Below are positions 542 through 5,838 of a stretch of DNA of 11,722 nucleotides, in pieces. The position numbers were made by a program, and so were the translations under genes. Origin of the DNA: a virus (lineage: Duplodnaviria > Heunggongvirae > Uroviricota > Caudoviricetes); the IMG/VR virus record IMGVR_UViG_2713896897_000002. One strand, given 5' to 3'. The notes beneath the pieces were generated by a model. The model had not been told where the DNA came from and did not search any database. It was given only the letters and a program-made list of their open reading frames with translations. Every line of letters starts with the position of its first letter. Within the stretch, counting starts at the first letter, position 1.

Positions 542-748
542 ATGGAAAAAATCACAGCGGGCGTTGCTTACGGCACATCTGCCGGCAGCGCTGGCTACTG
601 GTTTTTACAGTGGCTTGATCAGGTCAGTCCGTCACAGTGGGCTGCGATTGGTGTGCTGGGAAGTCTGGTTCTGGGCTTTCTGACTTACCTGACAAATCTG
701 TACTTCAAAATCAGAGAAGACAAGCGTAAGGCTGCGAGAGGTGAATAA
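542..748 (+). CDS. S: Class II holin (pinholin), phage-21 S-type
   Basis: The 68-aa product [68 protein letters not shown] closely matches recalled S21 pinholin. It has a Gly/Ala-rich first transmembrane domain, a second hydrophobic domain and a charged C-terminus. Its stop overlaps the endolysin start (TAATG). Confidence 0.85.
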
Positions 749-1245
749 TGCCTCCATCATTACGAAAAGCCGTTGCTGCTGTTATTGGTGGCGGAGCAAT
801 TGCTATAGCATCAGTGTTAATCACTGGCCCAAGTGGTAACGATGGTCTGGAAGGTGTCAGCTACATACCATACAAAGATATTGTTGGTGTATGGACTGTA
901 TGTCACGGGCATACAGGAAAAGACATCATGCTCGGTAAAACGTATACCGAAGCAGAATGCAAAGCCCTCCTGAATAAAGACCTTGCCACTGTTGCCAGAC
1001 AAATTAACCCGTACATCAAAGTCGATATACCGGAAACAACGCGCGGCGCTCTTTATTCGTTCGTCTATAACGTGGGTGCCGGCAATTTCAGAACATCGAC
1101 GCTTCTTCGCAAAATAAACCAGGGCGATATTAAAGGTGCATGTGATCAGTTACGTCGTTGGACATACGCTGGCGGTAAGCAATGGAAAGGCCTGATGACT
1201 CGTCGTGAGATTGAGCGTGAAGTCTGTTTGTGGGGGCAGCAATGA
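748..1245 (+). CDS. R: SAR endolysin (signal-arrest-release lysozyme, T4-lysozyme/GH24-like; R21-type)
   Basis: N-terminal SAR domain [18 protein letters not shown] after a basic stretch. Catalytic triad spacing is E35, D44, T50 (GLEG...KDIVGVWT), as in P1 Lyz / R21. It is coupled to the holin upstream and to Rz downstream (ATGA overlap at 1242-1245). Confidence 0.9.
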
Positions 1246-1679
1246 GCAGGGTAACCGCAATCATCTCCGCTCTGGTTATCTGCATCATCGTCTGTCTGTC
1301 ATGGACTGTTAATCATTACCGTGATAACGCCATCGCTTACAAAGAACAGCGCGATAAAGCCACATCCATCATCGCTGATATGCAGAAGCGTCAACGTGAT
1401 GTAGCAGAACTCGACGCCAGATATACAAAGGAGCTTGCTGATGCTAACGCGACTATTGAAAGTCTCCGTGCTGATGTTTCTGCTGGTCGTAAGCGCCTGC
1501 AAGTCGCCGCCACCTGTGCAAAGTCAACGACCGGAGCCAGCGGCATGGGCGATGGAGAAAGCCCAGGACTTACAGCAGATGCTGAACTCAATTATTACCG
1601 TCTCCGAAGTGGAATCGACAGGATAACCGCGCAGGTTAACTACTTGCAGGAATACATCAGGACGCAATGCCTGAAATAA
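1242..1679 (+). CDS. Rz: Rz i-spanin (inner-membrane spanin subunit)
   Basis: ATG at 1242 preceded by GGGGG. The N-terminal membrane anchor [16 protein letters not shown], coiled-coil-like periplasmic domain and C-terminal region are near-identical to recalled lambda Rz ([30 protein letters not shown]...). The ORF track's GTG at 1230 is less likely. Confidence 0.85.
1441..1626 (+). CDS. Rz1: Rz1 o-spanin (outer-membrane lipoprotein), embedded in the +1 frame of Rz
   Basis: AAGGAG (1427-1432) lies 8 nt before ATG 1441. The product [27 protein letters not shown]... has a signal peptide, a lipobox-like VSAC with the Cys, and a proline-rich mature region. It lies wholly inside Rz, the canonical embedded spanin architecture. 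Confidence 0.8.
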
Positions 1680-1710
1680 TTTTTTTGCAAATCACAAAGT
1701 CAATTTAATG

Positions 1711-1737
1711 AGCCTCGCGATGCGGGGCTTTTTTTTA
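1711..1737 (+). terminator. Rho-independent terminator after the lysis cassette
   Basis: AGCCTCGC (1711-1718), GAT loop, GCGGGGCT (1722-1729), then an 8-T run (1729-1737), about 30 nt after the Rz stop. Confidence 0.55.
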
Positions 1738-1881
1738 CATCTGAATTTCACAGCGTATCGCAGCGCGTAACAATCCCGAGTCTTTCAGAAAGCTGAGCCT
1801 GAGAACTGCCGTATAGGTGAGGACCTCTCGGGGACGGCTTTTCTGTGCGAACAGGCTCAACTTTCTAAAGGAAATACCGAC

Positions 1882-2478
1882 ATGAACAAATCATTAACCG
1901 TTCTTCCTTCTGGCGAATACCCGACCATGAGCAGTCTTGAGATGGTGGATTACATTAATGCTGATCGGAAATCCAAAGCGGAGGCGGAGGGGCTTGCGTT
2001 CCCCTGTAAGAAATATCGCAAACTCGAACACCGCAGTTTCATGAAGAAAGTACCCAAGGTCCTCGGGGATGCAGCTGCAAAATTTTTTGCAACTGATACC
2101 TATATCAACGGAACAGGTGGTGTTGTGGAGAGGGATATTTGCAATTTTCCCAAGCGTGAAGCTTGCCTCATGGCAATGAGCTACAGCTATGAGCTTCAGG
2201 CGCAGGTGTATGACCACATGACTGAGCTTGAGGGTGGGAAGGAGATTAACCTTCTCGATTTCTCTGGCCTGACCGATATGGCAATCAGCGAAATGCAAAA
2301 CCGTGTCGCGGCTGCTGAGAAGTTCTCATTTGAAATGCACGGTCAAGCAGGTAGCGCTCTCATGACTCGTCGGAAGAAAGAGAAGAAGGCCATTAAAAAG
2401 GCTGAGCAGCTTGTGAAGGATCTTATTCAGTTCAAGCTATGTGACATGGGGGACTTCCCTGATGGTAAACCAGCATGA
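1882..2478 (+). CDS. rha: Rha-family phage regulatory protein (putative); accessory gene between lysis cassette and cos
   Basis: 198-aa ORF with AAAGGA upstream of ATG 1882. The N-terminal half (MSSLEMVDYIN...HRSFMKKVPKVL...YINGTGGVVERDICNFPKREACLMAMSY) fits the Rha pattern as I recall it. Position (after Rz, before the terminase small subunit) and size match the rha/orf201 genes of phi80 and P22. The C-terminal half is unrecognised. Assignment is from memory only. Confidence 0.55.
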   Translation: MNKSLTVLPSGEYPTMSSLEMVDYINADRKSKAEAEGLAFPCKKYRKLEHRSFMKKVPKVLGDAAAKFFATDTYINGTGGVVERDICNFPKREACLMAMSYSYELQAQVYDHMTELEGGKEINLLDFSGLTDMAISEMQNRVAAAEKFSFEMHGQAGSALMTRRKKEKKAIKKAEQLVKDLIQFKLCDMGDFPDGKPA

Positions 2479-2678
2479 CTCCGATTGATTTCATACATAA
2501 AAATGTAACAACCGAGTTAATAAAGCTTGGATACGACCAAAACGCGGCTATGACTGGCGCTGACATGGCGGTGGAACATTACCGCCGTTGTTCACAAGCC
2601 AGCAGAAAAGGCCGAATTTTCGATGACTGCCTGTACATTGCAAAACAGTGGGCAGGTAAACAGAAAGGGAAAAAATGA
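2475..2678 (+). CDS. Hypothetical small protein (67 aa), translationally coupled to the upstream gene
   Basis: ATGA start/stop overlap at 2475-2478. Basic C-terminus (GKQKGKK), no recognisable motif, AT-rich like its neighbour. Followed by hairpins at about 2695-2750. Confidence 0.45.
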   Translation: MTPIDFIHKNVTTELIKLGYDQNAAMTGADMAVEHYRRCSQASRKGRIFDDCLYIAKQWAGKQKGKK

Positions 2679-2912
2679 CAGTCTGAGAGCCACTTTCACA
2701 ACGGCTCTCCATTACAAAGCCCATCTACTGGTGGGCTTGATAATGGCTTATACCCTACACGGGATAACTTAACTGATATCCCTTTTAACGGATAAAGGTA
2801 TTCAGGCCTGACACATCATGCGCTGTATCGTCGCTGTATTTCCGCATTAACCATGACCGTAGCCCGACGGGGAACTCCTCTGCGCGAGCATGCAGGATGT
2901 TGATTCATTGCT

Positions 2913-2930: not shown

Positions 2931-2987
2931 GACGCTGGTCTGTAAGATATTGAATTTATTGAGAATGAACCAGAGCGCCTGCGGGTC

Positions 2988-3011
2988 CTTTCCGGCGATC
3001 CGGCAGGCTAC
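2988..3011. other. cosQ-like element (packaging termination signal) just upstream of cosN
   Basis: GGGTCCTTTCCGGCGATCCGGCAGGCTACG closely matches the recalled lambda right-end sequence GGGTCCTTTCCGGTGATCCGACAGGTTACG that immediately precedes the cohesive end. Confidence 0.7.
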
Positions 3012-3012
3012 G

Positions 3013-3024
3013 GGGCGGCGACCT
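3013..3024. other. cos: cosN: 12-nt cohesive-end sequence GGGCGGCGACCT (terminase nicking site; virion DNA ends)
   Basis: Exact lambda cohesive-end 12-mer, embedded in GGGGCGGCGACCTCGCGGTTTTTCACTATTTATGAAAATTTT, which closely matches the recalled lambda left-end sequence. Confidence 0.85.
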
Positions 3025-3199
3025 CGCGGTTTTTCACTATTTATGAAAATTTTTCAGGGAAAATCGTGTCGGTACTTCTCGAATATAACTTTTTGTTTTT
3101 TTTAATATTGCTTTCATAAAGGTCCGACATGAAAGTGTCCGAAAATGCCTTTTTCTGGCGTTTTCATGTCGGGCCTTGTATTTGATAATGGGGTGTTTT
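3025..3199. promoter_or_regulatory. cosB-like terminase small-subunit binding region with dyad repeats (diverged from lambda R sites)
   Basis: Lies between cosN and the Nu1 start. Contains GGTCCGACATGAAA (3121-3134) and its near-perfect inverted copy TTTCATGTCGGGCC (3163-3176), a third GTCCGA copy at 3137-3142, an overlapping small dyad CTTTCAT/ATGAAAG (3112-3135) and A/T tracts. It does not match lambda R-site sequence as I recall it. Confidence 0.5.
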
Positions 3200-3748: not shown

Positions 3749-5648
3749 TGCAGCCGGTGCGATAGCTACAGGGCTTTTATCTCTCATTATTCCTGTTCCA
3801 CTGACGACAGTTCAGTGGGCCAATAAACATTATTACCTTCCTAAAGAGTCGTCTTATACCCCGGGGCGGTGGGAAACACTGCCGTTTCAGGTTGGCATCA
3901 TGAACTGTATGGGCAACGATCTGATTCGCACTGTTAACCTGATTAAATCTGCCCGTGTTGGTTATACAAAGATGTTGCTGGGAGTGGAGGCTTATTTTAT
4001 TGAGCATAAATCACGCAACAGCCTTCTTTTTCAGCCCACGGACTCAGCCGCTGAAGATTTTATGAAATCTCATGTTGAGCCAACGATAAGGGATGTTCCT
4101 GCATTGCTGGAGCTGGCTCCATGGTTCGGAAGAAAACACCGCGATAATACGCTCACCCTGAAGCGTTTTTCCTCCGGTGTGGGGTTCTGGTGTCTGGGTG
4201 GTGCGGCAGCAAAAAACTACCGTGAAAAATCCGTGGATGTGGTCTGTTATGACGAGCTTTCCTCGTTCGAACCGGATGTTGAAAAAGAGGGGTCGCCAAC
4301 CCTGCTGGGGGATAAACGTATTGAGGGCTCTGTATGGCCAAAATCCATTCGCGGCTCGACGCCTAAAATCAAAGGCTCCTGCCAGATCGAAAAAGCCGCT
4401 AACGAGTCGGCACATTTCATGCGTTTTTATGTGCCCTGTCCGCACTGTGGGGAGGAGCAGTATCTGAAATTTGGCGATGATGCCTCGCCTTTCGGTCTTA
4501 AGTGGGAGAAGAATAAGCCAGAAAGTGTTTTCTACCTTTGTGAGCATCATGGCTGTGTGATCCATCAGTCTGAGCTTGACCAGAGTAACGGGCGGTGGAT
4601 CTGTGAAAACACGGGCATGTGGACCCGTGACGGCCTGATGTTTTTCAGCGCCCGGGGTGATGAAATTCCGCCGCCGCGCTCCATCACTTTCCATATCTGG
4701 ACGGCGTACAGTCCGTTCACCACTTGGGTACAGATTGTCTATGACTGGCTGGATGCACTGAAAGATCCCAACGGCCTGAAAACCTTTGTGAACACCACGC
4801 TGGGCGAGACCTACGAAGAGGCCGTGGGCGAAAAACTCGATCACCAGGTACTGATGGATAAGGTTGTGCGTTACACGGCGGCGGTGCCTGCCCGGGTGGT
4901 TTATCTGACGGCGGGCATTGACTCGCAGCGAAACCGTTTTGAGATGTATGTCTGGGGATGGGCTCCGGGAGAGGAAGCCTTTCTGGTGGATAAAATCGTC
5001 ATTATGGGGCGTCCCGATGAGGAAGAGACGCTGTTACGTGTGGACGCGGCGATCAACAAAAAATACCGCCATGCAGACGGAACCGAAATGACTATTTCCC
5101 GTGTCTGCTGGGACATCGGGGGGATCGATGGCGAAATCGTTTATCAGAGGTCAAAAAAACACGGTGTTTTCCGGGTGCTGCCGATAAAAGGCGCATCTGT
5201 CTATGGCAAGCCGGTGATCACCATGCCAAAAACCCGCAATCAGCGGGGCGTGTATCTGTGTGAAGTGGGGACGGACACCGCAAAAGAAATTCTCTATGCC
5301 CGTATGAAAGCCGATCCCACGCCTGTGGATGAAGCCACGTCGTATGCCATCCGTTTTCCTGATGATCCGGAGATTTTTTCGCAGACAGAGGCGCAGCAAC
5401 TGGTCGCGGAAGAGCTTGTGGAGAAGTGGGAAAAAGGAAACAAGATGCGTCTGCTGTGGGATAAAAAGCGGCGTAACGAAGCGCTGGACTGCCTGGTGTA
5501 TGCCTACGCGGCATTACGTGTGTCCGTGCAACGCTGGCAGCTTGATCTGGTTGTACTGGCAAAATCCCGGGAAGAAGAGACGACCCGGCCAACCCTTAAA
5601 GAACTGGCAGCGAAGCTGTCCGGAGGAGTGAATGGTTACAGTCGCTGA
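3720..5648 (+). CDS. A: Terminase large subunit (gpA-like; ATPase/endonuclease)
   Basis: Strong collinear match to recalled lambda gpA ([25 protein letters not shown]...[22 protein letters not shown]...). About 642 aa. ATG at 3720 (MISDAQ...) overlaps the Nu1 3' end by 29 nt, as in lambda. The extension to 3678 is unlikely. Confidence 0.9.
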
Positions 5649-5838
5649 ACTGCAGGCGCTGCGTCAGGCGCGCCTTGATTTATTAACCGGTAAACGGGTG
5701 GTGTCGGTCCAGAAAGATGGTCGCAGAATTGAATATACGGCGGCTTCTCTGGATGAGCTTAACCGGGCGATCAATGATGCGGAGTCGGTACTGGGGACAA
5801 CCCGGCGTCGCCGTCGTCCGCTGGGAGTGAGGTTATGA
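5632..5838 (+). CDS. W: Head-tail joining / head completion protein (gpW-like)
   Basis: The 68-aa product [40 protein letters not shown]... matches recalled lambda gpW (…[22 protein letters not shown]…). It overlaps the A 3' end and is coupled to the portal gene by an ATGA overlap. Confidence 0.85.
   Translation: MVTVAELQALRQARLDLLTGKRVVSVQKDGRRIEYTAASLDELNRAINDAESVLGTTRRRRRPLGVRL

Follow-up and report, generated by a model that had tools for sequence, protein, structure and literature searches.

A structured leader RNA and a conserved two-protein unit of the Bro network in an exchangeable late-region cassette of a lambdoid prophage

Two genes lie between the lysis gene Rz and the cos site of the viral DNA studied here, and in E. 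coli EC12, whose locus around 1311565-1312943 of NZ_CP070229.1 is 99.5% identical, both of them are labelled "hypothetical protein". What these genes are, and how their expression is controlled, is the question raised by the locus. The DNA (IMG/VR virus record IMGVR_UViG_2713896897_000002), referred to as the window in its full length of 11,722 nucleotides (nt), represents the late gene region of a lambdoid, phage-21-like E. coli prophage. Its two open reading frames (ORFs) are named ORF198 and ORF67 after the lengths of their products. An earlier note, made by a model from the sequence alone, had described them as a Rha-family protein with a coupled small basic ORF, placed in an accessory slot and possibly acquired separately from the surrounding genes.

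Our analysis identifies the locus as one exchangeable late-region cassette, composed of a leader RNA, a Bro-network protein and its coupled small partner. It brings to light a leader RNA that is undescribed and widespread, and, within the Bro network, two proteins that form a conserved unit. The term Bro network denotes domain-swapping phage proteins, among whose domains are Phage_pRha, Bro-N, KilA-N, ANT, ORF11CD3 and T5orf172 (PMC10111431).

The structured leader RNA

The 144 nt preceding ORF198 constitute a conserved, strand-specific structured RNA, an element that had no place in the earlier note. Approximately 150 nt are conserved in an alignment across classical Rha, Bro-N-type, Erwinia and Lonsdalea pair loci, with apparent compensatory changes, and since insertions and deletions do not come in multiples of three, the region is considered non-coding. 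Helices b to e (Table 1) build a rod with 26 paired positions, which is also obtained when the window leader is folded alone by minimum free energy (-38.3 kcal/mol, z = -2.5). The Shine-Dalgarno (SD) sequence AAAGG pairs with CCUUU, and pairing at the base of helix b reaches 88-92% among the leaders. The predicted structure occludes the ribosome-binding site of ORF198, and by its conserved structure and compensatory substitutions the element qualifies as a putative cis-regulatory structured mRNA leader. A terminator hairpin is located 5' of essentially every leader copy. Terminator and leader core are separated by the inverted repeat P0. Its arms are 87% paired among relatives, and compensatory changes are scarce; P0 may be an additional hairpin of the RNA or, at the DNA level, a palindromic site for a protein.

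Applied to the raw MAFFT alignment, RNAalifold recovered the terminator stem alone. Because insertions and deletions misregister the helices in such an alignment, the explicit structure was tested instead. In two MAFFT alignments that were not fitted to the structure, A9 (42 sequences) and A10 (36 sequences), 75.5% and 78.7% of the cells are paired, compared to 66.9% and 69.2% after shuffling. Covariation amounts to 0.301 in A9 (shuffled 0.185, slide controls at most 0.165) and to 0.342 in A10 (shuffled 0.194, slide controls at most 0.169). None of 500 shuffles reached the observed values in either alignment, a statistic that is inflated by the relatedness of the leader sequences. The model-fitted alignment, which is biased towards the structure, is 87.5% paired and reveals compensatory change in 25 of 29 pairs. 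The pseudoknot a:a' lies outside the covariance model. It comprises at least 6 contiguous bp in 57 of 58 unique leaders (mean 6.9) with 33 distinct loop sequences, while 19% of non-cognate pairings reach at least 6 bp (mean 4.5).

These pairing data bear on the alternative that the conserved region is a DNA-level feature and not an RNA, namely a linker for homologous recombination or a binding region for a protein such as IHF. Along this line, the leader and the right flank at 2710-2897 exactly border the exchanged cargo, and IHF is reported to regulate rha (PMC4936722). However, a DNA-level feature predicts neither compensatory pairing changes in six helices and a pseudoknot, nor the many G-U pairs that exist on the sense strand only, nor the lack of minus-strand matches described below. 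We consider this alternative very unlikely.

Searching approximately 1.04 Mb of fetched sequence, the covariance model of the leader yielded 137 matches, all on the plus strand and all ending at a start codon, which in most cases belongs to a Bro-network gene, and 0 matches on the minus strand. Of the proteins encoded behind the leader, 65 unique ones form a cluster that comprises Rha-like, Bro-N-type and classical Rha members; other genes encode KilA-N+ORF11CD3 or T5orf172/MUG113 proteins or a weak TerB-like protein, and one is a remnant of 11 codons. By BLAST alone, the leader was found in 145 cultured-phage records, almost always unannotated. Among them are phi80, HK639, epsilon34, Sf101 and 73 Stx2a phages, and the leader also occurs in phages of Klebsiella, Enterobacter, Pantoea, Hafnia, Providencia and Actinobacillus. 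Rfam 15 gave 0 matches at E ≤ 1 in the window and none overlapping the leader in eight diverse loci; its C4 and isrK models do not match the leader, and our literature search found no description of the element. The leader represents an undescribed, widespread RNA element absent from Rfam. No ligand can be inferred for it; the genes downstream are regulatory and not metabolic.

The leader model also corrects gene starts. In phi80 (L185, NC_021190.1) it scores 114.3 bits directly 5' of rha, whose annotated start at 1868 falls inside the RNA helices, whereas the ATG given by the model is located at 1904, 36 nt (12 codons, in frame) downstream. Judged by the leader model, the annotated start of phi80 rha is probably wrong.

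ORF198 and its small partner

Homologues of ORF198 number more than 2100 across the Enterobacterales and are conserved in full length (195-207 residues), which marks ORF198 as a genuine gene. The assignment of ORF198 to the Rha family stands in part only: recognisable similarity is limited to the N-terminal half, and the Pfam search that the earlier note had proposed as a check came out negative. ORF198 has no match in Pfam or NCBIfam even at E ≤ 1, PF09669 (Phage_pRha) included. Weak matches to PF09669 were obtained with 42 of 78 relatives (best E 3.9e-6; examples 25.8 and 20.4 bits), which fall below the curated cutoff of 29.9 bits. The classical Rha of Sf101, located in the same slot, itself matches PF09669 at 1.6e-21, and its comparison with ORF198 by BLASTP (E 1.3) revealed no similarity. 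Likewise, tblastn with ORF198 recovered no rha of P22-like phages, phi80 or HK639. By these comparisons, the N-terminal domain of ORF198 appears only remotely Rha-like.

Residues 5-134 of ORF198 share 37-52% identity with proteins of Acinetobacter, Pseudomonas and Vibrio phages annotated as Ant, KilAC or Roi, the C-termini of which differ from that of ORF198. PHROGs groups ORF198 with its "anti-repressor Ant" and "transcriptional regulator" families (approximately 5e-11). The predicted structure (mean predicted local distance difference test score, pLDDT, of 72) consists of a confidently predicted N-terminal alpha/beta domain (approximately residues 12-117) and a C-terminal part, the C-module (approximately residues 119-198), in which two long helices (128-153 and 159-186) are followed by a tail that is predicted to be disordered, yet is conserved (D-x-G-D-F-P-x-G-x-P-A). 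A sequence-profile search of the PDB gave no match below E = 0.2. The linker of the family, residues 114-142 (EGSKDINLLDFSGLTE..), bears a weak, non-significant likeness (E 0.22) to PDB entry 8bny, 'Immunity repressor protein'.

ORF67 had been proposed to be a gene coupled to ORF198, and both parts of this proposal are borne out. Its median ratio of nonsynonymous to synonymous substitution rates is 0.11 (212 pairs) versus 1.45-1.76 in the two shifted frames. It overlaps ORF198 by 4 bp (ATGA, 2475-2478), an arrangement that recurs among relatives as detailed below. ORF67 is a member of phrog_4439, a family without an assigned function (1.5e-34), and has the invariant core GAD..H.RRCSQAS..G.IFDDC; an exhaustive profile search collected 109 representative relatives, nearly all of 60-100 residues. 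A three-helix bundle (helices 3-18, 22-38 and 48-63) is predicted at a pLDDT of 85, and comparison of this model against the PDB gave no significant match (best E = 1.0). Two candidate relationships were rejected. Similarity to RMF came from a single match at E 0.054, with 3 of 65 relatives matching and an hhalign probability of 0.45%, and matches of the ORF67 profile to TPR proteins reflect a mere generic resemblance of helical hairpins.

To which part of ORF198 is ORF67 tied? Divergent ORF67 homologues each overlap an upstream gene at its stop codon; this partner has approximately 190 residues, and its N-terminus is Rha-like (Lonsdalea, the window) or of Bro-N type (E. coli Stx-type prophages, Klebsiella; PF02498 6.5e-8). 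The two kinds of partners have unrelated N-termini and share only the C-terminal approximately 110 residues (35-38% identity, E 3e-18 to 6e-22). In 97 loci fetched through ORF67, the C-module is present in 66 of 91 upstream ORFs. They represent essentially the entire short class of ORF67 (66-74 residues, identity down to 46%), in which ATGA forms the junction in almost every case. In the reverse direction, ORF198 gave 77 evaluable loci, 63 of which have an ORF67-like gene at the stop codon; the 14 exceptions are made up of eight with a divergent C-terminus (..SDEDSSDAGRRLR..), two truncated, one with ORF67 displaced by approximately 690 bp, and three with a canonical C-module.

At the level of sequence, ORF67 thus co-occurs with the C-module and not with the N-domain, and the counts in both directions define the conserved unit as C-module plus ORF67 with an interchangeable N-domain. 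As the two behave as one evolutionary unit, a complex between them is predicted. The combination of the module with alternative, unrelated partner domains places ORF198 in the domain-swapping Bro network. The C-module is undescribed and has no Pfam model, a word-indexed search with it yielded mostly fragments, and ORF67 has no known family beyond phrog_4439.

Several further observations were made on these genes. ORF198 relatives with a divergent C-terminus (..SDEDSSDAGRRLRKRQDDL..) and without ORF67 are found in L154, L155, L157-L159, L170, L178 and L181, and in L143 an unrelated ORF of 51 aa overlaps the stop codon in place of ORF67. A long class of ORF67 relatives (77-90 aa) is found in loci L057-L099 (e.g., L067 2992-3258 and L072 3001-3252); their basic tail ends in ..LF or ..MF, which is reminiscent of a clamp-binding tail. 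Between the window (2449-2744) and the Stx-type E. coli prophage L009 (4975-5269), DNA similarity restarts in the C-terminal tail of ORF198 and spans ORF67; the L009 protein equals that of the window from residue 28 to the end, and the first 27 residues alone differ. Either a mosaic joint lies inside ORF67, or its helix 1 is partner-specific. In E. coli FDAARGOS_943 (L003 3801-4109, locus identity 94.7%), ORF67 DNA is present with no gene annotated; it is either inactivated or was overlooked by annotation.

The overlapping genes, the small downstream partner and the predicted tight silencing by terminator and leader would also suit a toxin-neutraliser pair, an abortive or addiction-like device. 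In such a device, ORF198 would be harmful, as Rha is upon over-expression, with ORF67 serving as the coupled antidote or chaperone. In this context, deregulated classical Rha inhibits phage DNA synthesis (PMC4936722; phi80 record note). However, no toxin, antitoxin or defence domain was found in ORF198 or ORF67 by PADLOC, Pfam or NCBIfam. Moreover, the leader also precedes single-gene cassettes without a partner (classical Rha, KilA-N), and relatives of ORF67 occur alone, too. We regard such a pair as quite unlikely.

Exchange and expression of the cassette

The slot between Rz and cos had been taken for an accessory position, in good agreement with our findings: the cargo is rare, its flanks are common, and other genes occupy the same slot. 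The cargo is present in only approximately 10-17 of 5426 complete E. coli genomes; for parts of the flanks, in contrast, 4093 records gave a match, and in other phages the same flanks enclose classical Rha, KilA-N or other genes. Comparison with loci of other cargo delimits the exchanged segment to approximately 1870-2709. Terminator and leader are kept on its left, and on its right 2710-2897, which is approximately 95% identical despite different cargo (e.g., L183 2230-2417, L009 6555-6743). The exchange of cargo is explained by this architecture of the slot, in which the leader marks the left border and the conserved flank the right one. The right flank might act as another conserved RNA or simply anchor recombination.

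The Stx-type prophage L009 carries three tandem cassettes, each with its own terminator hairpin and leader (Table 1). In the first of them, the intact leader outlived the loss of its gene.

The position of the two ORFs between the upstream terminator and the downstream hairpins was verified together with the coordinates, and the downstream hairpin region folds with z = -6.1. Beyond Nu1, the genes for the large terminase subunit, the portal and the head follow. The higher AT content ascribed to the locus is real in comparison with the head genes only. Positions 1740-2760 have a GC content of 0.477, the head genes of 0.552; values just as low as that of the locus itself hold for the lysis region (0.489) and for cos/Nu1 (0.483). 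Consequently, GC content is uninformative on separate acquisition, which the earlier note had read from it, and low GC as a sign of foreign origin was ruled out.

Table 1. Features of the cassette and its surroundings. Positions refer to the window, except for the last three rows, which refer to L009.
Feature	Position	Strand	Remarks
P21-type holin	542-748		PF04971 3.9e-35
Lysozyme RrrD	748-1245
Rz with embedded Rz1	1230-1679		PF03245 7e-35
Intrinsic terminator after Rz	1710-1737	+	Stem GAGCCTCGC/GCGGGGCTT with 9 pairs (1710-1730), then T-run reaching 1736
P0 inverted repeat	1752-1768	+	GCGYA-N5-7-TGCGC type; between terminator and leader core
Leader RNA core, approximately 120 nt	1767-1886	+	Covariance model 104.3 bits, E 1.2e-22
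Pseudoknot a:a'	1775-1780 / 1827-1832		CCCGAG / CUCGGG; a' in apical internal loop
Helix b	1781-1792 / 1861-1872		3' arm holds SD AAGGA (1868-1872)
Helix c	1795-1801 / 1852-1858
Helix d	1802-1805 / 1841-1844
Helix e	1808-1811 / 1835-1838
Hairpin f	1816-1825
ORF198 start codon	1882		AUG
ORF198	1882-2478	+	198 aa
ORF67	2475-2678	+	67 aa, basic tail GKQKGKK
Hairpin 1	2685-2709	+	7-bp stem; last element of exchangeable cargo
Conserved right flank of slot	2710-2897	+	Holds hairpin 2 and terminator-like hairpin
Hairpin 2	2710-2745		Within right flank
Terminator-like hairpin	2761-2786		Followed by UUUU; not listed in the earlier note
cos	2982-3180		Similar to phage 21
Nu1	after cos		PF07471 3.6e-82
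L009 leader 1	3999-4118		Before 11-codon remnant
L009 leader 2	4317-4436		Before Bro-N+ORF67 pair
L009 leader 3	5688-5807		Before KilA-N+ORF11CD3 gene

How is such a cassette expressed? A sigma70-like site at 1747-1774, overlapping the P0 repeat, scores 9/12. It is not conserved among 64 unique leaders, in which the mean score is 6.88 versus a background of 6.44 and 6% reach 9/12, and the idea of an autonomous sigma70 promoter was set aside for this lack of conservation. The same result bears on the possibility of a classic moron, which would be expressed in the prophage from its own promoter and benefit the lysogen by superinfection exclusion or host regulation, like bor in the lambda slot. 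The position in the slot, the terminator upstream and the terminator-like hairpin downstream, the promoter-like site in the window and the patchy distribution of the cargo are all as expected from a moron. The lack of conservation of this site, the sequestered SD and the absence of PADLOC matches argue against it, and a moron is in our view unlikely.

Since no conserved promoter is present, transcription of the cassette would be limited to Q-modified late transcription. As the probable explanation of the locus as a whole, held with moderate confidence, we propose a late-transcribed accessory regulator pair that is doubly insulated by terminator and leader. In the lysogen, the upstream terminator would stop stray, non-antiterminated transcription, while during late lytic growth the Q-modified, terminator-resistant RNA polymerase would transcribe the cassette. 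The leader would then damp or gate translation of ORF198, and ORF67 would be made by termination-reinitiation in a fixed proportion to ORF198 and would bind its helical C-module. The resulting complex, a putative DNA-binding regulator or antirepressor-type factor, might act on resident elements, on competing ones or on replication. The double insulation implies a product that is harmful at the wrong time or level. This mechanism fits the behaviour of classical Rha in IHF-deficient hosts: Rha is the product of a late gene and blocks phage DNA synthesis when IHF-dependent control fails (PMC4936722; phi80 record note).

Late expression also matters for a further possibility, an anti-defence module in which ORF198 and ORF67 would block an immune system of the host at a late stage of infection. 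The accessory nature of the locus, its small proteins without known function and its patchy distribution would be compatible with this role. However, the proteins show no similarity to any known family, expression behind the lysis genes would be ill-timed against early-acting defences, and the domain family is a DNA-binding or regulatory one. We therefore hold an anti-defence role to be highly improbable.

Besides the relatedness of the leader sequences already mentioned, several points weigh against a doubly insulated regulator pair in the form proposed. The leader is missing from approximately 16 of 80 ORF198-family loci, the most divergent ones, and the leader model, run with filters off, gave no match in 15 divergent loci; the ORF198/ORF67 pair is thus independent of the leader. 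In three loci, the C-module is canonical but ORF67 is missing. Conversely, long-class ORF67 relatives are located directly after cII (PF05269 4.4e-30) or rusA without a C-module partner, so that ORF67 may act on its own. A winged-helix assignment of ORF198 is based on sub-threshold PF09669 matches and non-significant fold matches. Finally, pseudoknot and full rod may exclude each other; for both to exist at once, the RNA would have to bend sharply at the conserved asymmetric loop.

A more far-reaching interpretation, which we put forward only tentatively and as possible rather than probable, regards the leader as a new class of RNA switch gating Bro-network genes. Rod and pseudoknot would be alternative or cooperating, signal-responsive states, with RNase III, an IHF-dependent factor, a small RNA or a ligand as candidate signals, and the C-module/ORF67 pair would be a new two-protein effector under the switch. 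The gated genes would be Rha, Bro-N, KilA-N and T5orf172 genes in temperate phages of the Enterobacterales and some Pasteurellaceae. If true, such a switch would provide the missing mechanism for the forty-year-old finding that phi80 rha is lethal to the phage in IHF-deficient hosts.

Comparison with known systems

Rha, Bro-N and KilA-N genes are among the commonest genes without an assigned role in temperate phages and are routinely labelled "antirepressor" or "transcriptional regulator" without evidence. By its predicted pairing, the leader, almost always unannotated in the 145 phage records mentioned above, appears to control the translation of such Bro-network genes. With lambda bor and other morons between Rz and cos, the cassette shares the accessory position, the patchy occurrence and the flanking terminator-like hairpins. 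It differs from them by unrelated proteins, the occluded SD and the lack of a conserved promoter.

In lambda, the mRNA leader of N contains a long imperfect RNase III hairpin by which the SD of the following gene is sequestered. The cassette leader likewise is a long, imperfect SD-sequestering hairpin, and by analogy its rod is a plausible RNase III substrate. There is no sequence relationship between the two, and the pseudoknot of the cassette leader is not a known feature of the N leader.

P1/P7 C4-icd-ant, P4 CI and Gifsy-1 IsrK-orf45-anrP are RNA-gated antirepressor operons. In both these and the cassette, a structured RNA located 5' of a Bro-network or antirepressor-type gene controls access to the ribosome-binding site, predictedly so in the cassette, and small and large ORFs are coupled. 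Unlike in these operons, the small ORF of the cassette is located downstream of the large gene, the Rfam models C4 and isrK are unmatched, and no sign of a trans-acting RNA was found. Operons of this kind are also covered by PMC10111431.

Within the Bro network, the C-module of ORF198 stands behind two unrelated N-domains, and the N-domain is also found with other C-termini. In the Bro-network literature, we found no description of the seemingly obligate coupling of the C-module to a small downstream gene, or of a shared RNA leader. With the Rha family PF09669, many ORF198 relatives share a weak match in the N-terminal half. Unlike ORF198, classical Rha proteins have neither the C-module nor an ORF67 partner; they are 174-184 aa long, match PF09669 at 1.6e-21 to 2.2e-28 and in some cases also carry ORF11CD3. 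Phi80 Rha and P22 orf201 (PF09669), in turn, occupy the same slot after Rz/Rz1 in the late operon as the cassette of the window, behind the same upstream terminator and the same leader (114.3 bits in phi80, 104.3 bits in the window).

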